Source: Naegleria gruberi (taxonomy: Eukaryota). Taken from it: DNA of 64,000 nt. Below, in pieces: positions 6,001 to 53,800 of this stretch (positions are counted from its first letter, which is position 1; the number at the start of each line of letters is the position of its first letter). The stretch lies in assembly GCA_000004985.1 (NCBI GenBank), contig GG738880.1; one strand, 5' to 3'. The notes beneath the pieces were generated by a model that saw nothing but the letters and a program-made list of their open reading frames with translations, did not search any database and had not been told where the DNA came from. The position numbers were made by a program, and so were the translations under genes.

Positions 6001-9000
6001 NNNNNNNNNNNNNNNNNNNNNNNNNNNNNNNNNNNNNNNNNNNNNNNNNNNNNNNNNNNNNNNNNNNNNNNNNNNNNNNNNNNNNNNNNNNNNNNNNNNN
6101 NNNNNNNNNNNNNNNNNNNNNNNNNNNNNNNNNNNNNNNNNNNNNNNNNNNNNNNNNNNNNNNNNNNNNNNNNNNNNNNNNNNNNNNNNNNNNNNNNNNN
6201 NNNNNNNNNNNNNNNNNNNNNNNNNNNNNNNNNNNNNNNNNNNNNNNNNNNNNNNNNNNNNNNNNNNNNNNNNNNNNNNNNNNNNNNNNNNNNNNNNNNN
6301 NNNNNNNNNNNNNNNNNNNNNNNNNNNNNNNNNNNNNNNNNNNNNNNNNNNNNNNNNNNNNNNNNNNNNNNNNNNNNNNNNNNNNNNNNNNNNNNNNNNN
6401 NNNNNNNNNNNNNNNNNNNNNNNNNNNNNNNNNNNNNNNNNNNNNNNNNNNNNNNNNNNNNNNNNNNNNNNNNNNNNNNNNNNNNNNNNNNNNNNNNNNN
6501 NNNNNNNNNNNNNNNNNNNNNNNNNNNNNNNNNNNNNNNNNNNNNNNNNNNNNNNNNNNNNNNNNNNNNNNNNNNNNNNNNNNNNNNNNNNNNNNNNNNN
6601 NNNNNNNNNNNNNNNNNNNNNNNNNNNNNNNNNNNNNNNNNNNNNNNNNNNNNNNNNNNNNNNNNNNNNNNNNNNNNNNNNNNNNNNNNNNNNNNNNNNN
6701 NNNNNNNNNNNNNNNNNNNNNNNNNNNNNNNNNNNNNNNNNNNNNNNNNNNNNNNNNNNNNNNNNNNNNNNNNNNNNNNNNNNNNNNNNNNNNNNNNNNN
6801 NNNNNNNNNNNNNNNNNNNNNNNNNNNNNNNNNNNNNNNNNNNNNNNNNNNNNNNNNNNNNNNNNNNNNNNNNNNNNNNNNNNNNNNNNNNNNNNNNNNN
6901 NNNNNNNNNNNNNNNNNNNNNNNNNNNNNNNNNNNNNNNNNNNNNNNNNNNNNNNNNNNNNNNNNNNNNNNNNNNNNNNNNNNNNNNNNNNNNNNNNNNN
7001 NNNNNNNNNNNNNNNNNNNNNNNNNNNNNNNNNNNNNNNNNNNNNNNNNNNNNNNNNNNNNNNNNNNNNNNNNNNNNNNNNNNNNNNNNNNNNNNNNNNN
7101 NNNNNNNNNNNNNNNNNNNNNNNNNNNNNNNNNNNNNNNNNNNNNNNNNNNNNNNNNNNNNNNNNNNNNNNNNNNNNNNNNNNNNNNNNNNNNNNNNNNN
7201 NNNNNNNNNNNNNNNNNNNNNNNNNNNNNNNNNNNNNNNNNNNNNNNNNNNNNNNNNNNNNNNNNNNNNNNNNNNNNNNNNNNNNNNNNNNNNNNNNNNN
7301 NNNNNNNNNNNNNNNNNNNNNNNNNNNNNNNNNNNNNNNNNNNNNNNNNNNNNNNNNNNNNNNNNNNNNNNNNNNNNNNNNNNNNNNNNNNNNNNNNNNN
7401 NNNNNNNNNNNNNNNNNNNNNNNNNNNNNNNNNNNNNNNNNNNNNNNNNNNNNNNNNNNNNNNNNNNNNNNNNNNNNNNNNNNNNNNNNNNNNNNNNNNN
7501 NNNNNNNNNNNNNNNNNNNNNNNNNNNNNNNNNNNNNNNNNNNNNNNNNNNNNNNNNNNNNNNNNNNNNNNNNNNNNNNNNNNNNNNNNNNNNNNNNNNN
7601 NNNNNNNNNNNNNNNNNNNNNNNNNNNNNNNNNNNNNNNNNNNNNNNNNNNNNNNNNNNNNNNNNNNNNNNNNNNNNNNNNNNNNNNNNNNNNNNNNNNN
7701 NNNNNNNNNNNNNNNNNNNNNNNNNNNNNNNNNNNNNNNNNNNNNNNNNNNNNNNNNNNNNNNNNNNNNNNNNNNNNNNNNNNNNNNNNNNNNNNNNNNN
7801 NNNNNNNNNNNNNNNNNNNNNNNNNNNNNNNNNNNNNNNNNNNNNNNNNNNNNNNNNNNNNNNNNNNNNNNNNNNNNNNNNNNNNNNNNNNNNNNNNNNN
7901 NNNNNNNNNNNNNNNNNNNNNNNNNNNNNNNNNNNNNNNNNNNNNNNNNNNNNNNNNNNNNNNNNNNNNNNNNNNNNNNNNNNNNNNNNNNNNNNNNNNN
8001 NNNNNNNNNNNNNNNNNNNNNNNNNNNNNNNNNNNNNNNNNNNNNNNNNNNNNNNNNNNNNNNNNNNNNNNNNNNNNNNNNNNNNNNNNNNNNNNNNNNN
8101 NNNNNNNNNNNNNNNNNNNNNNNNNNNNNNNNNNNNNNNNNNNNNNNNNNNNNNNNNNNNNNNNNNNNNNNNNNNNNNNNNNNNNNNNNNNNNNNNNNNN
8201 NNNNNNNNNNNNNNNNNNNNNNNNNNNNNNNNNNNNNNNNNNNNNNNNNNNNNNNNNNNNNNNNNNNNNNNNNNNNNNNNNNNNNNNNNNNNNNNNNNNN
8301 NNNNNNNNNNNNNNNNNNNNNNNNNNNNNNNNNNNNNNNNNNNNNNNNNNNNNNNNNNNNNNNNNNNNNNNNNNNNNNNNNNNNNNNNNNNNNNNNNNNN
8401 NNNNNNNNNNNNNNNNNNNNNNNNNNNNNNNNNNNNNNNNNNNNNNNNNNNNNNNNNNNNNNNNNNNNNNNNNNNNNNNNNNNNNNNNNNNNNNNNNNNN
8501 NNNNNNNNNNNNNNNNNNNNNNNNNNNNNNNNNNNNNNNNNNNNNNNNNNNNNNNNNNNNNNNNNNNNNNNNNNNNNNNNNNNNNNNNNNNNNNNNNNNN
8601 NNNNNNNNNNNNNNNNNNNNNNNNNNNNNNNNNNNNNNNNNNNNNNNNNNNNNNNNNNNNNNNNNNNNNNNNNNNNNNNNNNNNNNNNNNNNNNNNNNNN
8701 NNNNNNNNNNNNNNNNNNNNNNNNNNNNNNNNNNNNNNNNNNNNNNNNNNNNNNNNNNNNNNNNNNNNNNNNNNNNNNNNNNNNNNNNNNNNNNNNNNNN
8801 NNNNNNNNNNNNNNNNNNNNNNNNNNNNNNNNNNNNNNNNNNNNNNNNNNNNNNNNNNNNNNNNNNNNNNNNNNNNNNNNNNNNNNNNNNNNNNNNNNNN
8901 NNNNNNNNNNNNNNNNNNNNNNNNNNNNNNNNNNNNNNNNNNNNNNNNNNNNNNNNNNNNNNNNNNNNNNNNNNNNNNNNNNNNNNNNNNNNNNNNNNNN

Positions 9001-12000
9001 NNNNNNNNNNNNNNNNNNNNNNNNNNNNNNNNNNNNNNNNNNNNNNNNNNNNNNNNNNNNNNNNNNNNNNNNNNNNNNNNNNNNNNNNNNNNNNNNNNNN
9101 NNNNNNNNNNNNNNNNNNNNNNNNNNNNNNNNNNNNNNNNNNNNNNNNNNNNNNNNNNNNNNNNNNNNNNNNNNNNNNNNNNNNNNNNNNNNNNNNNNNN
9201 NNNNNNNNNNNNNNNNNNNNNNNNNNNNNNNNNNNNNNNNNNNNNNNNNNNNNNNNNNNNNNNNNNNNNNNNNNNNNNNNNNNNNNNNNNNNNNNNNNNN
9301 NNNNNNNNNNNNNNNNNNNNNNNNNNNNNNNNNNNNNNNNNNNNNNNNNNNNNNNNNNNNNNNNNNNNNNNNNNNNNNNNNNNNNNNNNNNNNNNNNNNN
9401 NNNNNNNNNNNNNNNNNNNNNNNNNNNNNNNNNNNNNNNNNNNNNNNNNNNNNNNNNNNNNNNNNNNNNNNNNNNNNNNNNNNNNNNNNNNNNNNNNNNN
9501 NNNNNNNNNNNNNNNNNNNNNNNNNNNNNNNNNNNNNNNNNNNNNNNNNNNNNNNNNNNNNNNNNNNNNNNNNNNNNNNNNNNNNNNNNNNNNNNNNNNN
9601 NNNNNNNNNNNNNNNNNNNNNNNNNNNNNNNNNNNNNNNNNNNNNNNNNNNNNNNNNNNNNNNNNNNNNNNNNNNNNNNNNNNNNNNNNNNNNNNNNNNN
9701 NNNNNNNNNNNNNNNNNNNNNNNNNNNNNNNNNNNNNNNNNNNNNNNNNNNNNNNNNNNNNNNNNNNNNNNNNNNNNNNNNNNNNNNNNNNNNNNNNNNN
9801 NNNNNNNNNNNNNNNNNNNNNNNNNNNNNNNNNNNNNNNNNNNNNNNNNNNNNNNNNNNNNNNNNNNNNNNNNNNNNNNNNNNNNNNNNNNNNNNNNNNN
9901 NNNNNNNNNNNNNNNNNNNNNNNNNNNNNNNNNNNNNNNNNNNNNNNNNNNNNNNNNNNNNNNNNNNNNNNNNNNNNNNNNNNNNNNNNNNNNNNNNNNN
10001 NNNNNNNNNNNNNNNNNNNNNNNNNNNNNNNNNNNNNNNNNNNNNNNNNNNNNNNNNNNNNNNNNNNNNNNNNNNNNNNNNNNNNNNNNNNNNNNNNNNN
10101 NNNNNNNNNNNNNNNNNNNNNNNNNNNNNNNNNNNNNNNNNNNNNNNNNNNNNNNNNNNNNNNNNNNNNNNNNNNNNNNNNNNNNNNNNNNNNNNNNNNN
10201 NNNNNNNNNNNNNNNNNNNNNNNNNNNNNNNNNNNNNNNNNNNNNNNNNNNNNNNNNNNNNNNNNNNNNNNNNNNNNNNNNNNNNNNNNNNNNNNNNNNN
10301 NNNNNNNNNNNNNNNNNNNNNNNNNNNNNNNNNNNNNNNNNNNNNNNNNNNNNNNNNNNNNNNNNNNNNNNNNNNNNNNNNNNNNNNNNNNNNNNNNNNN
10401 NNNNNNNNNNNNNNNNNNNNNNNNNNNNNNNNNNNNNNNNNNNNNNNNNNNNNNNNNNNNNNNNNNNNNNNNNNNNNNNNNNNNNNNNNNNNNNNNNNNN
10501 NNNNNNNNNNNNNNNNNNNNNNNNNNNNNNNNNNNNNNNNNNNNNNNNNNNNNNNNNNNNNNNNNNNNNNNNNNNNNNNNNNNNNNNNNNNNNNNNNNNN
10601 NNNNNNNNNNNNNNNNNNNNNNNNNNNNNNNNNNNNNNNNNNNNNNNNNNNNNNNNNNNNNNNNNNNNNNNNNNNNNNNNNNNNNNNNNNNNNNNNNNNN
10701 NNNNNNNNNNNNNNNNNNNNNNNNNNNNNNNNNNNNNNNNNNNNNNNNNNNNNNNNNNNNNNNNNNNNNNNNNNNNNNNNNNNNNNNNNNNNNNNNNNNN
10801 NNNNNNNNNNNNNNNNNNNNNNNNNNNNNNNNNNNNNNNNNNNNNNNNNNNNNNNNNNNNNNNNNNNNNNNNNNNNNNNNNNNNNNNNNNNNNNNNNNNN
10901 NNNNNNNNNNNNNNNNNNNNNNNNNNNNNNNNNNNNNNNNNNNNNNNNNNNNNNNNNNNNNNNNNNNNNNNNNNNNNNNNNNNNNNNNNNNNNNNNNNNN
11001 NNNNNNNNNNNNNNNNNNNNNNNNNNNNNNNNNNNNNNNNNNNNNNNNNNNNNNNNNNNNNNNNNNNNNNNNNNNNNNNNNNNNNNNNNNNNNNNNNNNN
11101 NNNNNNNNNNNNNNNNNNNNNNNNNNNNNNNNNNNNNNNNNNNNNNNNNNNNNNNNNNNNNNNNNNNNNNNNNNNNNNNNNNNNNNNNNNNNNNNNNNNN
11201 NNNNNNNNNNNNNNNNNNNNNNNNNNNNNNNNNNNNNNNNNNNNNNNNNNNNNNNNNNNNNNNNNNNNNNNNNNNNNNNNNNNNNNNNNNNNNNNNNNNN
11301 NNNNNNNNNNNNNNNNNNNNNNNNNNNNNNNNNNNNNNNNNNNNNNNNNNNNNNNNNNNNNNNNNNNNNNNNNNNNNNNNNNNNNNNNNNNNNNNNNNNN
11401 NNNNNNNNNNNNNNNNNNNNNNNNNNNNNNNNNNNNNNNNNNNNNNNNNNNNNNNNNNNNNNNNNNNNNNNNNNNNNNNNNNNNNNNNNNNNNNNNNNNN
11501 NNNNNNNNNNNNNNNNNNNNNNNNNNNNNNNNNNNNNNNNNNNNNNNNNNNNNNNNNNNNNNNNNNNNNNNNNNNNNNNNNNNNNNNNNNNNNNNNNNNN
11601 NNNNNNNNNNNNNNNNNNNNNNNNNNNNNNNNNNNNNNNNNNNNNNNNNNNNNNNNNNNNNNNNNNNNNNNNNNNNNNNNNNNNNNNNNNNNNNNNNNNN
11701 NNNNNNNNNNNNNNNNNNNNNNNNNNNNNNNNNNNNNNNNNNNNNNNNNNNNNNNNNNNNNNNNNNNNNNNNNNNNNNNNNNNNNNNNNNNNNNNNNNNN
11801 NNNNNNNNNNNNNNNNNNNNNNNNNNNNNNNNNNNNNNNNNNNNNNNNNNNNNNNNNNNNNNNNNNNNNNNNNNNNNNNNNNNNNNNNNNNNNNNNNNNN
11901 NNNNNNNNNNNNNNNNNNNNNNNNNNNNNNNNNNNNNNNNNNNNNNNNNNNNNNNNNNNNNNNNNNNNNNNNNNNNNNNNNNNNNNNNNNNNNNNNNNNN

Positions 12001-12353
12001 NNNNNNNNNNNNNNNNNNNNNNNNNNNNNNNNNNNNNNNNNNNNNNNNNNNNNNNNNNNNNNNNNNNNNNNNNNNNNNNNNNNNNNNNNNNNNNNNNNNN
12101 NNNNNNNNNNNNNNNNNNNNNNNNNNNNNNNNNNNNNNNNNNNNNNNNNNNNNNNNNNNNNNNNNNNNNNNNNNNNNNNNNNNNNNNNNNNNNNNNNNNN
12201 NNNNNNNNNNNNNNNNNNNNNNNNNNNNNNNNNNNNNNNNNNNNNNNNNNNNNNNNNNNNNNNNNNNNNNNNNNNNNNNNNNNNNNNNNNNNNNNNNNNN
12301 NNNNNNNNNNNNNNNNNNNNNNNNNNNNNNNNNNNNNNNNNNNNNNNNNNNNN
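1..12353. other. Assembly gap (run of N); sequence unknown
   Basis: Bases 1-12353 are all 'n'. The first real base is at 12354 and lies inside a coding exon, so the adjacent gene is truncated by the gap. Confidence 0.99.
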
Positions 12354-14107
12354 AGTTAGCAAAACCAGTCTTAACAGCTTCAACGTCTGGTTGGGTAACA
12401 TTCTTCAATGCACATCCACCGTGGAATTTAAGAGCACGAATACTGGCAACAATGACAGCAACAGATGGCTTCAAACCAGAAATTCTGCACTTGATGTCAA
12501 AGAACTTTTCACCACCAATATCACCACCAAAACCAGCTTCAGTCAAAACAAAACCATCTTCACCAACAAGTCTCAAAGCAATATCATCAGCAATAATACC
12601 ATTTTGACCAGCAGCAATATTAGCAAATGGACCAGCATGAACAAAAACTGGAGTAGATTCAATAGTTTGCATCAAAGTTGGCTTAATGGTGTCCTTCATC
12701 AAGACAGCCATAGCACCAGCAACACCAACATCTTCAGCAGTAACTGCATTACCATCACGATCATAGGCAACAGTAATCTTACCAAATCTTTCTCTCATGT
12801 CTGTCAAATTCTTGGACAATGCCAAAACAGCCATACATTCAGAGGCAACAGCAATATCAAATTGAGTTTCTCTGGTTTGACCCTTTTCATTTGGACCTTG
12901 GCCAATAGTGATCTTTCTCAAATGTCTGTCGTTAATATCAACAACTCTGTTAATCTTAATAGTGGCTGGATCAATATTTAATCTGACGAGTTTTTCTCTT
13001 TCTTCTGGTGTTAATTTATCTGGATCTTCTCTTTCAGCAATACCTAATTTGGCCAATCTTTGGATCATGGATGGAACAAATTGTCTCTTTCCGTCCTTAC
13101 CAGCTGGACAAAGGTGATCAAAGAGTTGATCAGTCTTTTGATATGATTCATGGAAAACTCTAGTATCAACAGCAGCAGCCAACAAGTTATTGGCAGCAGC
13201 AATAGCGTGAATATCACCAGTCATGTGCAAATTGAATTCTTCCATAGGAACCTATTGTCAAATGATCATAAAATTTGAAAAAACAGTTCAATTATTGTGC
13301 ACTTACAATTTGTGAATAACCACCTCCAGCAGCACCACCCTTGATACCCTATAATTATTATTTGATTAATTATCATACTCCTCATTCAAAACTTACAAAA
13401 ACAGGTCCTTGTGATGGTTGTCTTAAACAAGAAACAACCTTTTTTCCGAGATGAGCACCCAAAGCTTGTGAGATACCCAAACAAGTTGTTGATTTACCTT
13501 CACCGAGAGGTGTTGGATTAATACCAGTAATCAAAACATAATTTCCCATTGGAGCATCTTGTCCTAAACGTTTAAGAATTTTCTTTCCATCAATCTTAGC
13601 CTTGTACTTTCCGTAAAATTCCAATTCTTCGTCAACATCAATGCCATAACGTGTGGCAATATCACCAATAAATTCAGGTTTACAATGTTGAGACACTTCA
13701 ATATCACTTGGGACAGGGACACGAATTTCACTCAATTTCTTACCAGTAATTGTTTCTTGTTGGGACATTTTTTTGTTGGTGTTGTTGTTGCAACCGGTTG
13801 AAGAACTGTAAGAGCGAAAAGAAGAGCCGGTTGAAGATGTTCTTGCTGATGATTCGCTACAATCAATAATATTAACATATTTGTGATGGGAAATTTGTTT
13901 GGCGCCAAAATTTAGGGAAGTATTCTTCTTCTTGTTGGTTGCAAGGCTTTTTGAGAAGCTTCTTCTTATCGATGATGATGAAGAGGTGGTTGAGCAAGTT
14001 GTTGATGATGCATTGTTCAATTGATGATTAGGAGTGTTACCGATGAGACGATCATGACACCAAAGTGATTGAATATTACACTTGGATTTTGTAATCTTAC
14101 GAAGCAT
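12354..14107 (-). CDS. Formate--tetrahydrofolate ligase (10-formyl-THF synthetase, monofunctional FTHFS). The 3' end is lost in the gap.
   Basis: Minus-strand exons: 13397..14107 (or start at the ATG at 13768), 13307..13348, and 12354..13251, which continues into the N run. Introns 13349..13396 (48 nt) and 13252..13306 (55 nt) are both GTAAGT...TAG. The spliced translation reads ...VPVPSDIEV...[17 protein letters not shown]...QGPVF|[14 protein letters not shown]|[17 protein letters not shown]...[29 protein letters not shown]. This carries the FTHFS P-loop [10 protein letters not shown] and other core motifs. The ORF-track N-terminal 113 aa (S-rich) looks like non-coding read-through or a targeting peptide. 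A second Met, [11 protein letters not shown] at 13768, aligns with FTHFS N-termini. Confidence 0.9.
13898..13910. promoter_or_regulatory. Palindromic E2F-like site TTTGGCGCCAAAA about 130 bp upstream of the second in-frame ATG of the FTHFS gene
   Basis: A GC-rich palindrome sits in otherwise AT-rich sequence and matches the E2F consensus TTTSGCGC on both strands. It lies within the poorly conserved 5' extension of the ORF, which may really be 5' leader. Confidence 0.35.
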
Positions 14108-22923: not shown

Positions 22924-23367
<444 letters not shown>

Positions 23368-23904: not shown

Positions 23905-25551
23905 ATGTTTGATTTTTTAAAAAGATTTCTTCCAACAAGCCTTGGTGGAAACGTCACGCAAGAACCTATCAACAAGAGAAAGAGAGAGGATATGGCTGCA
24001 GACCAACATGATGAATTTGCTAATAATAATAATAACAATACAAAGAAAACAAAGCCAAACATACCAGAAATGCCAATAACGACAACAACATCAGAAAACA
24101 ACAAATTACCAAATACTACTCAACAAGTTAAGGATAGTAAAAAGGAAGAATCGAGTGAACTAGCAATATTCTTGAAAAAACAACAAGAAACGGAAAACCA
24201 AATAATACCTATACGATCCCATAAGAAGAAGAATGTGAAAAAAGCAAAATCTAAATTAATTTCCGAAAAACCAATACTAACAGATGAAGTAATTGTTTTG
24301 GATGATGACGAAGATGATTTGAAACATGCTTACAAAAAGTTAGATGGAAATCTTGTGAATGAAAAGTATATTCAAAACCACAGTGAGGCTATTCATACTA
24401 AGCTTAACACTCAACAAAAGGTCAATTCCGAAATCAAAGTTCCACATATGCCAGTGGGAGGAATGGTTACAGAAAAGAAGAATGAAAAGAAAGTAGAATC
24501 GGTACCTATTCGTGTACAACCAAAACCACCTATAATTATTTCTAGAAAGCTTTTCAACAATAAGGATAAGGGTCCAACACTCTTTAGAGGAGATCAAGTT
24601 GATAGATTAACATCAAAGTTGGATTCAATTTTATCATTGAAGGAAAAATCAGAGGAAACTAGAATCACTAGATCTTTCATTGAAAAGGAGGCCATAAATA
24701 GAGCATCATCTAAGATTATTTCAATACTTTGTAAAGAGCTTTTGGGAGAGGAAGCAAAAAAACTTCATGCTGATTCACTACCACAAGCAGTGTATAACAA
24801 ATTAGTTTCTGAAATTATTACAGAGACTGTTGCTAAGGAAAAAGAGACTTTCCCACTATCAGAAAGAGACAGGAATTTTGTGGCACAAATTTTCCGAGAT
24901 GCACACAAAAAACCTCAAGAAGTTCTTGTACTTAAATTCAATATTGACATTACTAGAGCTAAAATTCAATGTCTTAATGGACTTGAATGGCTAAATGATG
25001 AAGTAATCAACTTTTATCTCAACATGGTCAAAGAAAGAAGTGAAAAGAATCCAGACAAGTATCCTAAAATCCATGTTTTCAACACATTTTTCTATGCCAA
25101 GTTGACTGGTGAACATAATAACACTTATAATTATAGTGCTGTGAGAAGGTGGACCAAGAAAATTGATCTTTTAGAATATGATAAGATTATTATTCCTATC
25201 CACTTGTCAGTTCACTGGACTCTTGCAATAATTAATTTGAGAGATAGCAAATTTGAATTTTTTGATTCAATGAATGGTCATAGAACAGGTATGAAGGTAT
25301 TACAAAATTTGGAAAAATACTTAGTTGACGAGATTAAAGACAAGAAGGGTGTTACATACGAAACGTCTTCTTGGGAGAAGAGTATGCCACCAGTTCCTCA
25401 ACAAGCAAATGGATCAGATTGTGGAGTTTTCACTTGTAAATTTGCCAATTATGCTGCCCAAGATTTGCCATTTTCCTTTTCACAAAAACACATGCGTTAT
25501 TTTAGAGATAGAATGGTTTTGGAGATTGTTAGAGCTAAAGAATTACTATAA
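23905..25551 (+). CDS. SUMO-specific protease (Ulp1/SENP family, peptidase C48)
   Basis: 548-aa ORF with an N-terminal K/N-rich region. The C-terminal catalytic domain reads LEWLNDEVINFYLNMV...IHVFNTFFYAKL...IIIPIHLSVHWTLAI...FDSMNG...QQANGSDCGVFTCKFANYAA, carrying the conserved His, Asp and Cys triad context of Ulp1. Confidence 0.8.
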   Translation: MFDFLKRFLPTSLGGNVTQEPINKRKREDMAADQHDEFANNNNNNTKKTKPNIPEMPITTTTSENNKLPNTTQQVKDSKKEESSELAIFLKKQQETENQIIPIRSHKKKNVKKAKSKLISEKPILTDEVIVLDDDEDDLKHAYKKLDGNLVNEKYIQNHSEAIHTKLNTQQKVNSEIKVPHMPVGGMVTEKKNEKKVESVPIRVQPKPPIIISRKLFNNKDKGPTLFRGDQVDRLTSKLDSILSLKEKSEETRITRSFIEKEAINRASSKIISILCKELLGEEAKKLHADSLPQAVYNKLVSEIITETVAKEKETFPLSERDRNFVAQIFRDAHKKPQEVLVLKFNIDITRAKIQCLNGLEWLNDEVINFYLNMVKERSEKNPDKYPKIHVFNTFFYAKLTGEHNNTYNYSAVRRWTKKIDLLEYDKIIIPIHLSVHWTLAIINLRDSKFEFFDSMNGHRTGMKVLQNLEKYLVDEIKDKKGVTYETSSWEKSMPPVPQQANGSDCGVFTCKFANYAAQDLPFSFSQKHMRYFRDRMVLEIVRAKELL

Positions 25552-25556
25552 ATTAT

Positions 25557-28500
25557 TTATTTTGAAAACAATTTGGCCTGTGAGAGTAGTTCTGTACTTA
25601 ATTGAATGATATTGTTGCACTTTAATCCACAAGTTTCAAAATTGATAATGTCAGACGTATCTTGCTTTAAAGAGTTAGCTAAAAGAACCCATCCGCTCAA
25701 TCTCTTATAAAACAAGTCTACAACAGATTCATCCAAGCGTAGTATTGGAGTTGGGGCTTCTTTTGCTTGCTCTCCATCTTTTGGCTTAATATTCGTAAGA
25801 ATGGAGGCTGAGGATACTGTTTCCTCAGATGCTAATCTTCTTTTTGTGAGCTGTCTTTCTAATTTGAAATTTCGTTTCAAAAGCTCAAATAGATATCTGT
25901 CTGCTTTTAAGGTTTCATTGATATTGGAGGGTTTCTCATTTCTCATAGAATTGTCTTCCAAGAAAACTACTTTCTTTTTAGAGCTTGTTGGATAGTTCAA
26001 ATAACAACCTGTTTTGATTATTTTTCTAGATAGGCTCATCACTACTTGAATGTTAAACGGTGTAAGGAGAATATTCAAACATTTCTCAAATTCACTTTCG
26101 AATAATGAGAGCAAATTTAAATTGTGTAATAAATTTTGCAAATCTAAATCCAATCTGAAAGGAGAGCAATAATCTTTACGAGTGGCATGCACAAAAGCAC
26201 ATGCCATATTATCAAACAAAACTCTTCCTTTTTCCATATCAAATATAATAGAATCATCCCTAACATTGCCCAATCCAATAAACCAACTAATAGCAGACCA
26301 TTTAGCAAGGTCTCTAACAACCCTTTCACACATGTCGTACCAGGAATTTTTGTAAATGTGATATTTCGTTATTAAGACAGTGTTTTTCTTCTTGGTTTCC
26401 ACATCATAGGACATGAGTGAATAGTGTTGGGATGCGTGCTGAGAAAAATATTGGAATAATACAGTTTCTGGCTTTTTGAGAGAAAAATTGAGTGATTTCA
26501 AAGACTGTAAATCCACAAATGAAGAGTTTGATTGTTTTCTAATTACTTTGAAATAATTTCCTCCCATCTTCATAATTGGTATCATTTCCAACTGTTCCAT
26601 CCCAATAAAATTCCCAATTGCATTCGAGGTTAACATTTCCAAATTTGAGGCATCCATGGTTGGAATGGGAGAAAGTGTAATGGCGAGACTTTCTTTTGAG
26701 GTTTCCTGATCAAAATCTCTATCAATTTGAATTCGCATCTCCCACAAATTATTGTTATTTTCATATGAAAATTTGGAAATTTCGATCGAGTTAACAAATT
26801 GCATCCATTTAAAACCAGTATCCTTTGCTGTTGATTTTCCAATATATTTAAACAGTTCCAATAATGAATTAAAGAATTCTTCTTTGTTAACTGAGGATTC
26901 CAAATTATTATGTAGCACATTATTGATCACTGATAAGGAAGCTTGAATCATTTTAAATTTGTGGTCATCACAATATTCCATAAATTTTCTGAACATTTCC
27001 AAGTTGCAAAATCTAAGAAAGTCCAAAACAAAGTTAATATTTTCCAGAGATGAATACTTTTGAATCGATTTGTAAGAGTTCTTAAAGAGAAATAATGATA
27101 CTAATCGGTTCAATTCTTCTCCATTGAATGTCTCAATAATGAAGGAGAAAATTTTAGCCCATCCCGTACAGAATGTAACACTTTCAAGCATGTCTTTGTC
27201 AATAAATCTGTATTCTATAAGATATGACAGTATATTGATGCAATGTTTTAGCTCTGTTACTGTCATTGAATTCTTACAATCTATTAATTTTGAAATATTC
27301 TCCAAAAAATCAAATATTAATAAATGTACACAATAGAAAACCGATGGCTTTTGTGTTTCTAAATCTGGTTGATAAGTAAATGATCCAAAATTGGAAGGGC
27401 ATAGGTTAGTGCATGTTTGGGAGAGAATTTCTTCCATTGTGAAATTTCTATTTGAATACTTATTGTTGGAAACTACAGATGAGAATAGGATGATTACAGA
27501 TTCTAGTGTTATAGTTCTTAAACAAAAGGAAATATTTTCAGGTAGTTCTATTTTAGAAGAGAGTAGCGCATAACCTATTCTCCAATCTAGCATTCCATTG
27601 TCTTGTGAAATCTTCCTAAGACCAAAGGTATCCTCATTTTTGATTGGATTATCTGTATTGGTAATGAATTCAACAAACTCTTTCCAATCTACCTTTTTTG
27701 ATTTTCGTATTGTAGTCTTTGATTGAAGTAAGAGCTGCTTTCTGACAAAATCGAATACTTTTGTGGAATCTCTTTCAAGAGAAGCATAGCAATCAGATAA
27801 CATTGAACAAAAAAGATTCAAAAACTCTCCACATGTTTTGAGTTCGATTTTGTTCAATCTGAATTTCAAAGATTCATCCTTAATTGACCATTCATGTAGA
27901 ATGAAATTTAAATTAATGGATATATCTTCAATATTACTAGTTTGTTCACAAATGATTTGAATTCTTTCATGAATAACAGCATCACTCGAAGTATCATTAA
28001 ATATATAGAAAATACATTTCCAAAATAGAGAATTTTTCTTTCCATGTATAAATTTAGAATCAAATTCTTCACTTATTACTATTTGTATAGGTTCCTCTGT
28101 TGTTTGTTTGTTTGTTTCTAGATTCATTTCTTCAACTGTTTCTACAAGTGGCTCTGTATTTCTATCAATAAAATCTTGGGCTAAGTCTAATAAACTATGG
28201 CGATTCAAATACCATTCAGAAGAATCCACAGTATGAATTGAAGAGTCAGATTGTGAAAGTTTCATAATATGAAGAAGGATAAGATGTGACTCAACAACAG
28301 GCTCCTTATATCTACTTGTAATTGATTCTACTGTTTTAACATAATCAATGATGGTATTTGTAGACAAATTCTCAATAGAACTAAAAATGTTTCTACTAGA
28401 ATTATTGGATTCGGGGTTCATTCCCTGCAATATATCAAAGAAGGGAGTCTTTTGATCTCTCCTACTCAGTTCGTATTGAATCCATTGTAAACAGGTGGAA

Positions 28501-31500
28501 GAGATCTTATCTTTGAGTACCAACTCTATTACTTTGATTTTTTCTGTTGTTAAAAGCTTGTTCTCAGTAAGCATCTTCTTGATAATATTCTCATAGGTGG
28601 TGGTGTTAATTTGTCGAGCAAAGTTGGCCAAATCTGATACAGTGTTCATTTCTTTCGAGTTGAGGAATGAAACATCTCCTTTCTTTAGAGTTTCCACTAG
28701 TTGGTAGTTGATTTTTTGTTCAGAATTCATTGAGTCAGAGTACGACTTGAGGAATAACTCGAAATTCTTCTTTTTCTCATCCTCTCTTATAGATCTATCC
28801 AATAGATTCTTTGCAAACAAGTAGGGAATAACATCAGGATACTCATTGGAAATTTTCTGAATGAAACTATCATTGGAATTAGTTAAAGATATGTATGATC
28901 CCAATATTTCACAAATATTTTCCTTATACAACCCTTTCAAATAATTCAAATAGGGCCAAAGATTATTAAAACCCATCTTGAACTCCTCAATCAATGAGGA
29001 ATATTCAATATTTGCATTGGATCTATTAAACTTGTTTAGAGTAACTCTTAATTTGAATAAATCAAACTCTGATAGCAGCTGTCTGGTCTCAATCGATTTG
29101 GCTTGCATTTTGATAATACTCAAATCTAGTTTCGATAAATATGATTCAAGATTATCGTTTAGGCCTATAAGAAAAGCAATTTTACATAGAGGATATAGCG
29201 TGTCAATTCTTGCAAATCTTGTAGAACCCATATTATTAGAAATTATCAGTGCTTGCTTTTTCATATTATTGGTGAGTAAATAAATTATTATCCATTGCCA
29301 ACAAGAAGTTTGAAACTTGGGATCAATTTCTTTAAGTGCTTGTTGTGCCTTTTCATAGAATTGAGTTTGATAGTATTGACTAGAGGGTGATCGTAAACTG
29401 AACTTCAATTCAAATATGATTGTCTTTGGTTTTTTCATGTAATCAGCACTTATACTGTGAATTGGATTCAGTGTTGAGAAGTAGCTCTCATTTGAAATGT
29501 AAGATATGTTTGCCTTAAGAAAGTGAATTGAAGATTTGTAGTTTTCCAAATTGAATATTTGGGCATGTTCAATCATGTTTGTTTTAAGCCAGTCTGGAAT
29601 ATTCTCAACAATTTTCTCAAGCTTTTCAAGCTCAGTTCTTGATTTTTCTATATCAAAATGATTGACATAGTATTTGGTTCCTAGTTTTAGTTTTTTGAGT
29701 TGAAATTCAATTGTGATTGGATTGAAATCTCTGTATACACTCGAAAAATTAGAGTCATCCAAAATATAGAATGTCTTTAACCGTAGATAGACGTATTCGT
29801 AATTCTTTGGGCTAGATCTTTGTAGATTTGATAATATTTGAAGAGCTTGCCTTGAAGATATGGTACTCTTCTTTTTGTAAAGAATTTTGGCTTGCAATAA
29901 CTGAAACTCTGGCGAAAGTTCACTAATATTTGAAACCTTAGGTATGTATTGTGATGCATTATTATAATCTTCAATGTTGTAATGATAAAGTGCTTTTTCA
30001 AAATCCACAGCAGATAAATTTCCACTTCCTTTATATCAAAAATTAATTAATTCGATAGATGAACTACACTTACTTGTTGCTTCGACCAAGCTTGTTTCAA
30101 TATATTTCCTAAGTTTTGAATTTGTTTTCAATGCACATTTCCCCATTCTATTGTAAGCATAAACTTGCATATAGTACGAAGAGTCATCCCTTTTAGTGAC
30201 CTCATCAAAAATCCACTTTGAATAGTCTAATAATTTCCAAGGACTTCCAGCACTTGCCAATGATATATAGTACCAGAAAAAAGTTGAGGAATCTTTACCT
30301 CCTGGCTTTTTGCCAATCATTACATGTCTGTCATAGAATAACTGCATCAAGATGAGTGATGTTTTGGCACATCCAAGTTTTGTTAAGTAGAACCACAATA
30401 GACGTAATGTTTGTGGATATTGAGAGCAAATGCTTTGGATTGTATAGTTATTGTAAATATCTTGAGTAAAGATAATTGGATCAATATTGAAAGAAGTTAA
30501 CAAGTATGAAAGAGCTCCCTCTATATCACCATTATAGTACTTCAATAGAGAAACATTATTACAAGCAGATTTTTCAATTTCAACAGATCTAAAACCAAGT
30601 GGTAATTGATTAAATCCAAACTGAAGTTTGGTACTATTTAGAAATCGTTCAAAAATAGTCGAGTTTGCATTGAATTGATTGGAATCGTCCTGAGATAAAA
30701 GCGAATCCAATAAGTTTTTCTTATATTCCAAACTTGCTAAACAATCACTCCCTGAAAATAATTCCAAAGCTTTTGTAATTACATTTTGTGCCAACTCATA
30801 ATTCCCTGTTTCCCAATAAATATCCACAATATTTTCAATTGATATTATTTGATATGGTGCTAATTCTAATCCCTTCATAAAAAATTCAATAGATTGCTTA
30901 TATAAACATCTATCTTTAAAAATAATTCCAAATAAATGATAAATTGATGGATTATTTGGATCTCTCTGTTTCATTTCATCCAAAATATGTATTGCCTCTG
31001 AATCCCAGCCCATATTATGTTTGATTAGTGCCAATGTTAATAAATAGGCAGTGTTATTTGGTTCACACTTTTTTGCTTTATAGCAACATTGAATGGCCTC
31101 TTCGTATTCCTCATGAATCATGTAAATTTCAGATAATGCTATCCAAGCATCAAAACTCGAATCTGTTTGTTTAATTATATTCAAGAAATATCCCTCAGCC
31201 CTATCTATATCATTTAATATCCTCAAATATCTTATTCCATTGTTTTTTATATTGAATTTCTCAATAAAAATACTTACAAATATCCTAAATTCAATAGTGG
31301 ATTAATTATTAAATGTTCATTTCTAATTTGTTGACTTTTTTGAAGGGAATATGTAAATGATTCGATGGATTTTTCAATTTCACCTCTATGTAATTGTAAG
31401 ACTCCAATATTATTAGTTACAAGAATATCCTCTTTTAGTAGTTCCTTTTTTCTCCCTATTAATTCTTTTGATTTTGCAAAACTGTCAAACGAAGATTGTA

Positions 31501-31671
31501 AATCTCCAATTTTATAATATAAATATCCTAATGTATTATATCCAACAATACTATTTTCGTTTGTTATTGATTTAGACACTTTAATATTTAAACAACAATA
31601 TCCGATAATTATTTACCTCGATCTATTAAATTATTTATTTCGGAAGTGTTATCCGAGAGGTGTGGAATCAT
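25557..31671 (-). CDS. Giant (~1995 aa) TPR/FAT-like protein ending in a degenerate PI3K/PIKK-type kinase domain (pseudokinase); possibly TRRAP-related
   Basis: Proposed exons: 31617..31671 (ATG; MIPHLSDNTSEINNLIDR), 31278..31578, 30074..31230 and 25557..30028. Introns: 31579..31616 (38 nt), 31231..31277 (47 nt) and 30029..30073 (45 nt), all phase-consistent. The N-terminal ~600 aa hold clear TPRs (AYLLTLALIKHNMGWDSEAIHILDEMKQRDPNNP...). The C-terminus has PIKK spacing: ...FKVIRKQSNSSFVDLQSLKS...WFIGLGNVRDDSIIFDMEKGRVLFDNMACAF...SPFRLD.... That matches GLGDRHxxNIMx6GxLFHIDFG with DRH->NVR and DFG->DNM, so the catalytic residues are lost. A FATC-like ...LFYKRLSGW lies near the end. Confidence 0.6.
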
Positions 31672-31708
31672 TTTTTTTGGTCGTATTTACAATTGTTTGT
31701 CTTACTTA

Positions 31709-33087
31709 TTAATATCCTGAAAGCTTTGAAGAGGACATCTTCTTTCCAGTTTTGCGTGGATCACCATTACGTTCAATTTCAGCACATTCATGAGTGATTG
31801 GATTATACTGAACAAATCTCTTATTAGGACTAGGTGTTGAAAGACCATTCTGTGAATAAAAAGATTGAGCAGTTGTTGTGTAAAAGTTTTGAGGATTTGA
31901 AGAGTAGAAGCTCTGAGATGATGGACTTCTGAATGGCTGTGGTTGATTGTTATATGATGAAGGACTCCTGTACATTTGAGGAGGAGGAGAGGTATATTGT
32001 GGAGATGCATACACATTTTGAGATGAAGGACTTCTGTACTGAACAGGTGATTGATTATTCGTAGTTCTATATTGCACTGCTTGATTATTTTGTGGACTCT
32101 TATTAGCGCTTTGGATTGGGTATTGGCTATAGTTTGTTTGAGGTGGATGTTGACTATAGTTGTTTTGTGGGCTCGAATAATTTTGAGGACTGGAATAATT
32201 ATTTTGTGGACTATATCCAGTTTGAGGGGAATAATCATTCTGAGTGTAACTTGGTGGTGATGGTTCTGGTTGATTTAGTGTTCTACTATCAATAGTACTC
32301 ATCATAATTGGAGTGATTGCAGTTAGGTCACTATCATTTCTCTTTAGTGGAGGTCTTTGAGATGGAACCTCATTAGAGGATGAAATAGTAGGATTTGGAA
32401 CCAATAAGGGAGCCCCACTAACAAAATACTGCTTAAATACAACAAAATTATTGCTTTGAGGAATATAGTCAGAGAGTCCGTAGTGTCTTCTAAGGAAACC
32501 AATAAGCTTTGGAGATGGTCTGTCGTAGGCAAATCTTTCAGGAGATGTTTTCTCAAAAGCTAGCATTGCTTCAAAGAGTATTTTACCAATACCTTTCCTT
32601 TGCACTGCTTCACTAACGTAAAAATCCAAAACACAAAGTGGTTCAATTTCCTTGAAATCTCCAGTCATACTCTGATAATAATTACTAAATAGTGTAGCGA
32701 CGCAATACTTACTCTATAGAATAGCTTTTTTCTTCCTACTTTTAAAATTCCAAATGCCTTATTATCTACACTATAAAGATAGAGATTATTATCATTAAAT
32801 TGAATTTTTGATGATGTTGTTATTGCTGTAGGAAGAACTTGGGCCTAAAAATCATCACATAATAATAAATATCAATTAGTGTTGCCAATAAAACTAACCT
32901 TTGCCGATGCATCACCCATTCTATCAATAACAGAGCAAATTACATTGTAATATTCCGCCTTTTTAGATTTAAGCAATGTAAGGGTTGTTTTGTTCCACAA
33001 TGAAATACAAGGATCATCTATATTGTTGTTGGGATTCAAAGTAAACGCCTTTGAGATACGTTGGATGTTGTGATGACCAAAATCCAT
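31709..33087 (-). CDS. Alpha-tubulin N-acetyltransferase (ATAT1 / MEC-17) with a long Y/S/P/Q-rich C-terminal tail
   Basis: Exons 32899..33087 (MDFGHH...[15 protein letters not shown]), 32713..32844 ([44 protein letters not shown]) and 31709..32671 ([83 protein letters not shown]...). Introns: 32845..32898 (GTTAGT..TTTTAG) and 32672..32712 (GTAAGT..TCAG), both phase 0. The catalytic core aligns near-identically with human ATAT1 ([22 protein letters not shown]...AIDRPSQKLLKFLNKHYNL...QVNNFVIFEGFF). Residues ~100–300 of exon 3 are degenerate YSPQNN/SPSSQ repeats. Confidence 0.9.
31830..32290 (-). repeat. Degenerate tandem Y/S/P/Q/N-rich coding repeats (prion-like low-complexity tail of ATAT1)
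   Basis: The translation reads [39 protein letters not shown]...[55 protein letters not shown]. The DNA shows recurring ggactat/ggagtat/tgaggact motifs. Confidence 0.7.
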
Positions 33088-50852: not shown

Positions 50853-53800
50853 TTATTGTTTGAGAGCAGAGCCCATTTGTTCTTTCAATTCGAATAATTT
50901 GTTCATTTGTTGATAACTGGATGTAATGAAGAAACGAGAGAAAGTATCATCCAAGTTAACCATCAAAGCACAATACATATCCTTTAAAGTCTCTTTCAAA
51001 TCATCGCTTTCAATCTTGCCACTTTTAATCAATTCGAATTGAGAATTGAATGATTTCTTGATGTGATGAGAAAAATTGATTTCCATTGGAGAATTAGTTG
51101 CCACAAAATTTTCATTCCATTCAGTAAATTCTTTTTCCAGATCTTCCATTGATGGAATATTTCCCCTATTAATTTCCTCAAGAATAGGATAAAGTTTCTT
51201 CCAAAATATTACATTTTCTAATGAATGTTCTGTCTTGGCAAATTGTTCAAAAACTTGACAAAGTATTGGTTGAATAAGAATATCCTTGATTTGATTATCC
51301 TCTTCCACATCTTCATTTCCAATCTGTGAAGTATAACCCTTTTTAGAAGCCAAGTATTCATAAATGGAAATAATTGAAACTAATCCACCAAAACTTAAAA
51401 TCAAAAGTAAATTATAAATCACTTCAAAAATATAGCCAACAATTAAATAGCTCTCTCTTGCATTGAGTGAAGTCTGTGAGGTGAGATAGGAGAAACCCAT
51501 TGCATTGGAAATTACATAGAACGCAATACTAATGAAAAATAAGGCAAATTCCTTTCTGAAGGAAAGATTGTCATTCACAATAAAGTAATTCTTGATTGGG
51601 TTAATGAAGAGTTTCTTATCTGTTTCTTTCAATTTGGAATTCAATTGAACATATCTCAATTCCATATAAATATCCACTGCATAGATAACACAAACAAGTA
51701 ATGAAATGGTCATTACAAATGCAAATAATGAGCTTGACATAATTTTTGTGTAGGTGTCTCCATCAATTGCACTCCTTCCCATCAGTGAAATGAAGATAAC
51801 AAAATAAATAATAATGAATAGAGCAATAACAGCATTCCACACAATAGAGAAAAACTTGTTGGTGAGAATGATCTTGGTCCACTTTAAAAAGGTATCAGTT
51901 TGAGTTTCTTTCTTTTCACTCAAAATGGCCATCAATTCATAAACATATTTGAATGTAATATATCTCAAATTGAACATTAAATAGTTCAATAATGAGAGGC
52001 AATAGAAAGTGCAACTAATCATTGTAAAAACGGATTGGACTATTGAGCTATCTCCACTTCTATCCAATAACATTGAACCAGGAATAATCACGCTAAAAAG
52101 CAGTTCAATAATAAGAGATACCAGGGCAAAGTAAGGAAGATACCATCTGCTCTTTGTTGGATTCCTTCGTGAGGTTATAATTAATCCAACAATTGCAACA
52201 ATAGCCAATACAATCAAAATTGAGCTGACAACAATTTTTCCAATGGTGAGAGGTATGCTACTGTATTTGGTAAATTGAAGGAATGCAGAGAATGTAGTGG
52301 TATGATTACATTGACAGTCAATAATACCATTAGATTGGTCAACCAGAGTTTTACATCCATCTGTTTTCCATAATCTTTCAGTTTCATCGAAATACTTGCA
52401 AGAAATAGTTAGTTGTGTGGAATTGGATTGGATGCTTTCTATGGTGCTCTTATCTACATTAAATTTAATGCTGATAGGGTTAGAGAGATTCGAAACGTTG
52501 AGAACTTGACCATTGGAAATATACTTGAGATCAGTAACCTTGGCCAAATTGACAAATGACGTTCCTGCTAATCCAATTAAATTATTGTAGGAATAGTTAT
52601 TACTCAATACAGATCCAGATATTAAGGAGGCCAACTTTTCAACATTTAAATAGGTAACACTTCCAATAGAAATATCTTTTAAAGTACTTAGCTCACTAGG
52701 AGTTACTACTGTGGTATTTCCATCAGAAACAATTGATTGATTGATATTTCTGGCAACTGACACTATAAAAGAAGCTGTAACCACTTGGAAAATACTATCT
52801 GATTGGGATGAAATTCTAGTGGCCACCATTACCGTTTTCTCAATAATTGAATTACTTTCTGAGCTAATATTGAAATTTTGAGACGAGTAGCAGTTAGAAT
52901 ATGCCATTAATACATTTGACAATGTTGATTCGTATGAAGCACTTGAGGTCTTTAAGGTATTCGAATCCAGTTGACTAAGTTCCTTGGAAATATTAACAGC
53001 TAAATTAGAGATGGTGTTCAGAATAGTCGAACTAACTTGAGATTGGGATGTAATGACAGACAATGCTTCTGTAACTTTGAGAGTTTCATCAGCATTGGAT
53101 GCATTTCTTTGTAAAGTTGAAATAGCGTTAGTGACAAGTTCCAAAACTTGAACAACATTAGTTGACTTGGAATAGGTATCCTTATTAGATGCAATGGTAG
53201 CAACATCACTAATTGGTAAAGTTTTGAGGAAACTTTCAGAAAAAACACTTTCGTATTCCATTACTTGTAAAGTATTGGAAAAGTCAACTGTGAATGATTC
53301 AGTTCCTAACGTGGCTGTTATAGAACATGAATAATTTCCCTTCTTCATGAACTTATCAATTGAAATAATCAATGGATTGGTGAATGATTGGATGTTCAAA
53401 GGTGTATTGAAATATGTGGTCAATTGATTTTTGCATTTCATTTCATAAGTAGCTGATTGGTAAACTGATTTGAATGATTCCGCATAGTTCAGTACTACTT
53501 TAACACTTGTATTAGTGTAAGTGACAGTTGAATAAAACTTTACATCAAATACAGGAGTCAGGCAATCTTTTCCATACCATCCACTTGTACAACCTGAAAT
53601 TACATACTTTCTAATAGTTGAATCTGCAACAATTATAGATCCATCATTAGTAATAGAAAGTGAGTTTGGCTGGAAGAGTATTATTTCATTCTTTCCTGGT
53701 GTTCCAATTATTGTTGAGATAGTATTCGATGATCTATACCATCTTCTAATACATTGATTGGATTTTTCTAAAATAGCCATATCTCCATTAGAAAAGAATG

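Follow-up and report, generated by a model that had tools for sequence, protein, structure and literature searches.

A conserved Naegleria gruberi gene predicted to encode a tetratricopeptide-repeat scaffold with a degenerate PIKK-like domain

This study concerns a gene on the minus strand of a 64,000-nucleotide stretch of Naegleria gruberi DNA (NCBI GenBank assembly GCA_000004985.1, contig GG738880.1), referred to below as the window. Our results show that this gene is intact and conserved and make it likely that it codes for a non-enzymatic scaffold protein, a member of a family that combines an N-terminal array of tetratricopeptide repeats (TPRs), a conserved helical middle region and a C-terminal domain derived from kinases related to phosphatidylinositol 3-kinase (PIKKs). 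In passages of two reviews (PMC8926402, PMC8625110), TRRAP/Tra1 is described as the sole pseudokinase among the PIKKs. The family reported here probably constitutes a second, previously undescribed group of 'dead' PIKKs. An earlier reading of the same DNA (the original prediction) had considered two possibilities for this gene, a highly reduced TRRAP or a lineage-specific pseudokinase scaffold of PIKK origin.

The family was delineated by an exhaustive HMMER search with a profile of residues 120-1140 against 1.84 billion representative proteins, in which few true relatives stood above a large number of generic TPR proteins. Apart from N. lovaniensis and Willaertia magna, whose orthologs are considered further below, it comprises proteins from N. 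fowleri (XP_044558902, 2,119 aa) and Percolomonas cosmopolitus (1,935 aa), a transcript from the malawimonad Gefionella okellyi (1,280 aa), P0008 from a Logan assembly and P0009 from EukProt ('gene5076-8676_t'), which are two proteins of 1,708 and 1,903 aa, and several fragmentary sequences. Within the Heterolobosea, it is thus represented in Naegleria, Willaertia and Percolomonas. The same search showed the family to be missing from most eukaryotes, a scan of metagenomic loci returned generic TPR matches only, and our literature searches retrieved no statement on a TPR-pseudokinase family. P0008 and P0009 are full-length members encoded by very AT-rich DNA and share with Percolomonas an RFPR variant of a core motif. 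As judged by BLAST, TPR region, core and C-terminus follow each other in the members as they do in the window protein. Identity calculated per block is highest at residues 100-900 and rises locally once more over residues 1701-1800, a peak that corresponds to the kinase-like core. Six complete-looking relatives measure 1,708-2,356 aa, the upper value being that of the Willaertia protein after removal of a fused segment (see below), so that the short length of these proteins is a property of the family rather than the result of a truncation. The notion of a PIKK-derived pseudokinase scaffold is supported, but its restriction to a single lineage is not, since the family spans the Heterolobosea and the malawimonad Gefionella.

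The relationship to PIKKs is apparent at several levels of comparison. PF00454 (PI3_PI4_kinase) is the only Pfam family matched by the last 502 residues of the window protein (E=0.0046, residues ~1681-1831). When the uninterrupted 1,483-aa open reading frame (ORF) was compared with all PDB chains using phmmer, mTOR alone was matched, with a weak E-value of 0.34; the HMMER alignment with mTOR residues 2312-2388 is ungapped and runs from the helix preceding the catalytic loop through the PFRLT motif. The last 435 residues, searched in the same manner, produced 23 matches, all of them to PIKKs and all on the same segment (mTOR 0.048, SMG1 0.11, ATR 0.24). A C-terminal profile built from eight members, corresponding to the last 502 aa of the window protein, detected SMG1 with an E-value of 0.003, and a family profile trimmed to 114 positions matched SMG1 (7.9e-4), Mec1 (5e-3), mTOR (0.02), Tel1 (0.056), ATM (0.18) and ATR (0.24). 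In total, 32 of the 34 matches of this trimmed profile among 177,635 distinct PDB sequences were PIKKs, again all on one segment, and none was a PI3K/PI4K lipid kinase, Tra1/TRRAP or DNA-PKcs.

Profile-profile comparison gave a similar picture. For this purpose, an SMG1 profile was assembled from 88 exon-sized fragments of the catalytic segment (70-142 aa), retrieved with an 81-aa segment of human SMG1. The family alignment matched this profile over 79 columns with an hhalign probability of 94.5% (P=8.3e-8, score 59.6), while 30 column-shuffled versions gave no score above 17.9 and a reversed version of the alignment reached 11.8. Omission of the window sequence left the match in place (91%, P=1.1e-6), as did restriction to the four members from outside Naegleria (90.4%, P=1.4e-6), in both cases on the same template columns. 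Based on these sequence comparisons, we conclude that residues ~1720-1830 are homologous to the core of the PIKK C-lobe, with an affinity for PIKKs rather than lipid kinases. The resemblance of the C-terminus to PI3K/PIKK proteins that the original prediction had noted thus goes beyond chance, as judged by the Pfam match, the PDB searches and the hhalign comparison with its shuffled controls.

A number of observations weigh against this interpretation. The PF00454 match scores 17.3 bits, below the curated gathering score of 27.1 bits. P0009, when used alone in hhalign, yielded a P-value of 0.26, and neither the C-terminus of the N. lovaniensis protein alone nor a profile of three Naegleria and Willaertia sequences matched a PIKK; these latter two null results indicate that the broader family is required to see the signal. 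The detectable similarity spans only ~80-150 residues, confined to the C-lobe core. FAT was not matched in Pfam by any member, a profile of residues 1160-1600 found no relatives in the PDB, and FATC (PF02260) was not matched up to an E-value of 10 by any of the eight C-termini. AlphaFold2 (AF2) models do not bear out a kinase fold: residues 1160-1994, modeled from an alignment of three sequences, obtained a predicted local distance difference test (pLDDT) score of 42 and residues 1560-1994 a score of 38, values on the kinase-like part ranging from 25 to 40. Finally, the scaffold function, the dependence on TTT and the link to microtubules discussed below are features that we infer.

Given the sub-threshold Pfam score, the failure of some members to yield a signal on their own, the lack of a confident fold in the AF2 models and the fact that a Foldseek search with the 435-aa model returned noise, one could argue that the C-terminal domain is unrelated to kinases and that its resemblance to PIKKs arose by chance or convergence in a TPR/solenoid protein. 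We consider this unlikely. When independent subsets of the family were used, each aligned with identical columns of the SMG1 profile at P-values of ~1e-6, the shuffled and reversed controls score far lower, the matches drawn from the whole PDB are almost exclusively PIKKs, and the order of the conserved elements agrees with that in PIKKs.

A different origin of the domain, from a PI3K/PI4K lipid kinase with its helical and kinase domains, is also improbable in our view. It draws on a Foldseek search with the low-confidence 835-aa model, which mainly retrieved the catalytic subunits of PI3K-gamma and PI3K-delta (E-values of 3e-3 to 6e-2), with mTOR at rank 50. Moreover, class I PI3Ks (p110 gamma/delta) resemble the window protein in their combination of a helical and a PI3K-type kinase domain and in overall length, the size of this helical-plus-kinase region would suit lipid kinases as much as PIKKs, as would the missing FAT and FATC, and PF00454 covers both groups. 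However, the sequence matches include no chain of a PI3K or PI4K, although many are present in the PDB, and the kinases that were matched are all PIKKs, from four classes. PFRL-type motifs are a consensus feature of PIKKs, and the corresponding motif of the window protein is of this type. The structural match is unreliable, with a TM-score of ~0.13 for a model with a pLDDT of 42, and redundant PDB entries of PI3K-gamma inflate the number of hits. The Foldseek result for the 835-aa model may serve at most as weak corroboration of the kinase-like nature of the domain.

The assignment of the C-terminal domain to the PIKKs makes it possible to locate the positions of the catalytic residues, and in the window protein the DRH Asp, the catalytic Asn and the DFG Asp are substituted. 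In the ungapped alignment with mTOR, the sequence GLGNVRDDS takes the place of the PIKK motif GLGDRHxxN, such that the Asp of the DRH motif is replaced by N1759, the Arg by Val, the His by Arg and the catalytic Asn by S1764, and LFDNM stands at the position of HIDFG. The activation-segment motif SPFRLDLDLQNLL aligns with IPFRLTRMLTNAM of mTOR and VPFRMTQNIE of SMG1, and the elements follow each other in the same order as in PIKKs (helix, G-x-G/S loop, D-rich strand, PFR motif, G..F helix). The substitutions proposed by the original prediction (GLGDRH to GLGNVR, HIDFG to LFDNM) are hence confirmed, and the motifs it named were all located in the rebuilt protein (GLGNVR 1756-1761, LFDNM 1775-1779, FVDLQSLKS 1675-1683, YKRLSGW 1945-1951). 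Its statement that the spacing between the catalytic and activation loops is exactly that of PIKKs agrees with the ungapped mTOR alignment but holds only to within one residue, because the DFG Asp falls on N1778. The proposed equivalence of FVDLQSLKS with the DLRQD-like segment of the N-lobe is plausible by eye, the N. lovaniensis ortholog having LDLRSVKSLYF at this place; the counterpart in TOR reads EDLRQDERVMQLF.

The loss of these residues extends to the whole family. Other members show the loop sequences GLSMRSR, GIPINNN, GLKPRSA, ELSNRQL, GIQYFNT and GVSERSS, and none of the eight members, the window protein among them, retains the DRH Asp. Thus, the domain is a pseudokinase throughout the family, and its degeneration does not reflect a sequencing error in a single genome. 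Retention is sporadic for the catalytic Asn, for the DFG Asp and for a candidate ATP-binding Lys in the N-lobe, each of which is found in some members only. Since the catalytic Asp is lost in every member and the other catalytic residues occur sporadically, phosphotransfer is not expected from the sequence of this domain.

The regions preceding the pseudokinase domain define the family equally well. Pfam places TPR_8, TPR_2 (both with E-values of ~1e-14) and TPR_1 (1.6e-7) on exons 2-3, where several canonical 34-residue TPR motifs can be recognized, as the original prediction had stated. The same array is found at the N-terminus of all relatives, and HEAT families match neither the N-terminus of the window protein nor those of its relatives. 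At default settings, no Pfam family other than TPR was detected on the rest of the window protein or on any member; identities such as separase, PI4KIIIalpha, IFT139/TTC21 and CFAP46 were dropped, because only TPR families match any member. For the best-conserved core (residues 330-900), a profile search of the PDB gave no meaningful match and hence no solved relatives. The helical repeats in front of the kinase-like domain were predicted to be entirely helical, with pLDDT values of 70-88, and represent the sole confident stretch of the AF2 model. They occupy the place expected for a FAT domain, and FAT domains are generally poorly conserved in sequence. The FAT label given to this region by the original prediction is nevertheless not supported, as neither Pfam (PF02259) nor the PDB searches returned a signal for it. 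The same is true for the proposed FATC-like element YKRLSGW, which is followed by another 43 residues before the protein ends, is limited to Naegleria and Willaertia and was not recognized as FATC by Pfam; the protein ends with ELLSQAKLFSK and has no aromatic/Trp signature at its terminus. Within the tail, conservation is strongest in a short motif, DRYLFELLKRNFKLER, that is common to the entire family.

The gene model underlying these comparisons was rebuilt from four exons and translated. Its spliced frame is free of stops and yields a product of 1,994 aa, in line with the ~1,995 aa estimated previously. It joins three long minus-strand ORFs (31274-31579, 30036-31226 and 25557-30008), and the two largest of them are parted by a TGA that falls within the 45-nt intron 3. 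Upstream of the initiator ATG, there is a run of A residues and an in-frame TAA at a distance of six codons. The N. lovaniensis ortholog (P0001), a single annotated protein of 2,126 aa, is colinear with 100% of the model at 39% identity, and the Willaertia ortholog is likewise colinear. As determined by tblastn of P0001 against its own locus, all three N. gruberi intron positions coincide with introns in N. lovaniensis. The residues encoded by exon 1 align with residues ~34-56 of the N. lovaniensis protein, which has an intron at the same place. Given the conserved intron positions, the colinearity and the conserved gene order described below, the model, including exon 1, is well supported. 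Because intron 1 has kept its position and the gene order is conserved, the concern raised earlier about the 5' end, which begins close to the preceding gene, has for the most part been met. The breaks in the tblastn alignment indicate at least seven introns in the N. lovaniensis gene (positions 6001-12981 of locus L001), compared with three in N. gruberi; together with the three shared positions, this difference suggests intron loss in N. gruberi or intron gain in N. lovaniensis.

It could still be argued that the model is an artefact, representing either a decaying pseudogene or two or three genes, such as a small TPR gene and the large ORF, that were joined by mistake. In favor of such a scenario, the searched collections contain no N. 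gruberi protein for the locus, and an in-frame TGA parts two long ORFs. However, this TGA resides in an intron with GTAAGT..AG boundaries that N. lovaniensis has at the same position, single annotated proteins from three further species match the joined protein colinearly over its full length, and an open frame of 4.4 kb in DNA with 31% GC would not last without selection. We therefore regard an artefact as extremely unlikely and treat the gene as intact. A collection of 15 billion proteins contained neither the predicted product nor a near-identical N. gruberi protein, although three neighboring ORFs in the window are identical to the N. gruberi entries XP_002675099, XP_002675020 and XP_002675098, which all derive from a single scaffold of 416,450 bp. 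The 6-kb gene thus appears to be unannotated and to have no entry in the reference proteins of N. gruberi, an omission that the present analysis brings to attention. The positions of the gene, its parts and its neighbors are compiled in Table 1.

Table 1. Positions of the TPR-pseudokinase gene, the elements of its product and the adjacent genes in the window.
Feature	Position	Strand	Residues	Remarks
Whole gene	25557..31671	-	1-1994	4 exons; 1,994 codons plus stop codon (25557-25559)
Exon 1	31617..31671	-	1-18 and first base of codon 19	ATG at 31671
Intron 1	31579..31616	-	between 18/19	38 nt, GTAAAT..AG; position common to N. lovaniensis
Exon 2	31278..31578	-		First TPRs; Pfam TPR_1 and TPR_2 matches on ORF
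Intron 2	31231..31277	-	119/120	47 nt, GTAAGT..AG; N. lovaniensis counterpart near residue 176
Exon 3	30074..31230	-		TPR array and beginning of conserved core; Pfam TPR_8 1.7e-14, TPR_2 2.5e-14
Intron 3	30029..30073	-	505/506	45 nt, GTAAGT..AG, in frame; R506 corresponds to the N. lovaniensis K561 intron
Exon 4	25557..30028	-	506-1994	One 4.4-kb open frame; 31% GC DNA
Canonical TPR array	30687..31555	-	~27-300	Spans introns 1-2; Pfam TPR families, E to 1e-14
Best-conserved family core	28842..30599	-	~330-900	Motifs FWYY..LA.aG.PW, AKILYKKKS, NNMGSTRFARxDTLYPL
Helical repeats before kinase-like domain	26772..27344	-	~1400-1590	Place expected for FAT/helical domain
PI3K/PIKK-like putative pseudokinase domain	25992..26810	-	~1578-1850	Pfam, PDB, hhalign
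Helix and catalytic-loop remnant NSWYDMCERVVRDLAKWSAISWFIGLGNVRDDS	26250..26348	-	1732-1764	Alignments to mTOR 2312-2388, SMG1 and family
DFG remnant LFDNM	26205..26219	-	1775-1779	DFG Asp onto N1778; D1777 one residue earlier
Activation-segment motif SPFRLDLDLQNLL	26127..26165	-	1793-1805	Matches PIKK vPFRLT motif
Family-wide C-terminal motif DRYLFELLKRNFKLER	25854..25901	-	1881-1896	Most conserved tail element, 8/8 members; no known counterpart
FYKRLSGW ('FATC-like')	25689..25712	-	1944-1951	Conserved only in Naegleria and Willaertia
ATAT1/Mec-17 alpha-tubulin acetyltransferase gene	31709..33087	-		Upstream, same strand; Pfam Acetyltransf_16 1e-32
Ulp1/SENP C48 protease gene	23905..25551	+		Convergent, downstream; Pfam Peptidase_C48 2e-48; same neighbor in N. 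lovaniensis

The gene is tightly packed between its neighbors. A mere 37 nt (31672-31708) separate the stop codon of the upstream ATAT1 gene from its ATG, and this head-to-tail linkage is maintained with a gap of 112 nt in N. lovaniensis (L001 4848-6001) and of ~100 nt in Willaertia magna (L002 ~5960-6100). Given such short distances, the promoter of the downstream gene must overlap the 3' end of ATAT1, or else both genes are co-transcribed. On the other side, the stop codons of the pseudokinase gene and the convergent Ulp1/SENP gene are 5 nt apart (25552-25556), so that the 3' untranslated regions of the two genes must overlap. The order of ATAT1, the pseudokinase gene and convergent Ulp1 is identical in N. 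gruberi and N. lovaniensis.

In Willaertia, the deposited protein ABK040_003005 (P0002; 2,686 aa, L002 5001-13463) presents ATAT1 fused to the TPR protein. In the underlying DNA, the ATAT1 frame stops (...SPSKIL*), and the TPR exon begins ~100 nt further on in another frame (MTDFKFFERALQSEEWFDHIGEW). This fusion is thus probably an artefact of gene prediction. The N. gruberi ATAT1 protein has a long low-complexity tail rich in S, P, Q, N and Y (SPQNNYS-like) on the C-terminal side of its Mec-17 domain (31709-32400, minus strand), with a tandem repeat at 32163-32200 in the region encoding it; the motif KTGKKMxSxSK at the end of the tail is also kept in Willaertia.

As for the remainder of the window, positions 1-12353 consist entirely of N, which marks a gap in the assembled N. 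gruberi scaffold, and the remaining DNA is AT-rich (~31% GC). A further very long, unbroken ORF of 1,446 aa lies at 50853-55193 on the minus strand, and its exact sequence is absent from the protein collection. Between positions 23000 and 34000, we found no tRNA genes, Rfam matches or significant tandem repeats.

The functional implications of this architecture can be outlined by analogy with other PIKKs. As is the case for Tra1/TRRAP, the pseudokinase domain may have been kept as a 'head' that gives rigid structural support, and the TPRs and the solenoid would recruit partner proteins. Like other PIKKs, the family protein may also be a client of the TTT-HSP90 co-chaperone system for its folding. 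The conserved linkage to ATAT1 and the presence of the family in flagellate and amoeboflagellate lineages give a faint hint of a microtubule-related role.

With regard to its evolutionary history, it is tempting to speculate that the family represents a seventh ancient branch of the PIKKs, a TPR-fused dead paralog that predates the split between Heterolobosea (Discoba) and malawimonads, arose near the last eukaryotic common ancestor and was lost in most lineages. We consider this scenario possible but, on balance, rather doubtful. If it were correct, TRRAP would not be the sole PIKK pseudokinase, and the ATAT1 linkage might indicate a role in microtubules or the flagellar apparatus. A second PIKK pseudokinase that degenerated independently would show that evolution has put the kinase 'head' of PIKKs to non-enzymatic use on more than one occasion, in the present case in fusion with TPRs. 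The family, conserved across several free-living protist lineages, would also provide a further trait from which to infer which PIKKs early eukaryotes possessed. The impact of these findings is limited by the remoteness of the homology, by the use of organisms outside the mainstream of model systems and by the fact that we infer the function.

Compared with the known PIKKs, the family would represent an additional paralog that is orthologous to neither TRRAP nor SMG1. Its profile matches the same segment in mTOR/TOR, ATR/Mec1 and ATM/Tel1, and the window sequence aligns with mTOR without gaps. In contrast to these proteins, however, the window protein does not conserve the Asp and Asn required for catalysis or the DFG motif, the identity amounts to ~20-25% over only ~80 residues, and no FRB, FAT or FATC domain was found.

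SMG1 is the top-scoring relative of the catalytic segment. In SMG1 as well as in the window family, the kinase core is separated from the C-terminal tail by an insertion that is variable. In contrast to the window protein, however, SMG1 is active, with an intact DRH..N..DFG constellation, and possesses a HEAT N-terminus as well as FAT and FATC domains. Because the margin by which SMG1 outscores Mec1 and mTOR is small, an assignment to a particular subfamily is not justified. N. gruberi has been reported to have SMG1, ATM and ATR (PMC5709506) as well as DNA-PKcs (PMC8021618) as separate proteins, and SMG1 is accompanied by SMG9 (PMC5709506, PMC6173133). In view of the missing catalytic residues and this separate SMG1-SMG9 pair, an SMG1 ortholog was rejected as an identity for the window protein.

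The closest functional parallel is provided by TRRAP/Tra1, proteins of ~3,400-3,900 aa that consist of HEAT repeats, a FAT domain, a pseudokinase domain and a FATC domain and are nearly universal in eukaryotes. One might thus ask whether the window gene encodes the Naegleria ortholog of TRRAP, drastically shortened, with its HEAT region replaced and still acting as the activator-binding scaffold of SAGA and NuA4/TIP60. Such a proposal would be in keeping with the possession of a PIKK-like domain devoid of catalytic residues, so far attributed to TRRAP alone in the review passages cited at the outset (PMC8926402, PMC8625110). In addition, literature searches returned no statement on a Naegleria TRRAP. 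Several findings nevertheless make a TRRAP ortholog very unlikely. Neither the window sequence nor the family profiles matched a Tra1/TRRAP chain in the PDB up to an E-value of 10, although SMG1, Mec1/ATR, mTOR/Tor2 and Tel1/ATM, representing four classes of active PIKKs, were all retrieved. The window protein has about half the length of TRRAP, and so do the six complete-looking members of its family; its N-terminus is made up of canonical TPRs instead of HEAT repeats, and FAT and FATC went undetected. Furthermore, the family has a patchy distribution and is absent from most eukaryotes among the 1.84 billion proteins searched, although TRRAP is almost ubiquitous. The reduced TRRAP envisaged by the original prediction is disfavored on these grounds. 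A second, TPR-fused family of PIKK pseudokinases is the reading we prefer, and its members share with TRRAP/Tra1 the design of a large helical-repeat protein that terminates in a PIKK-type domain without catalytic residues and presumably serves a structural or adaptor function.

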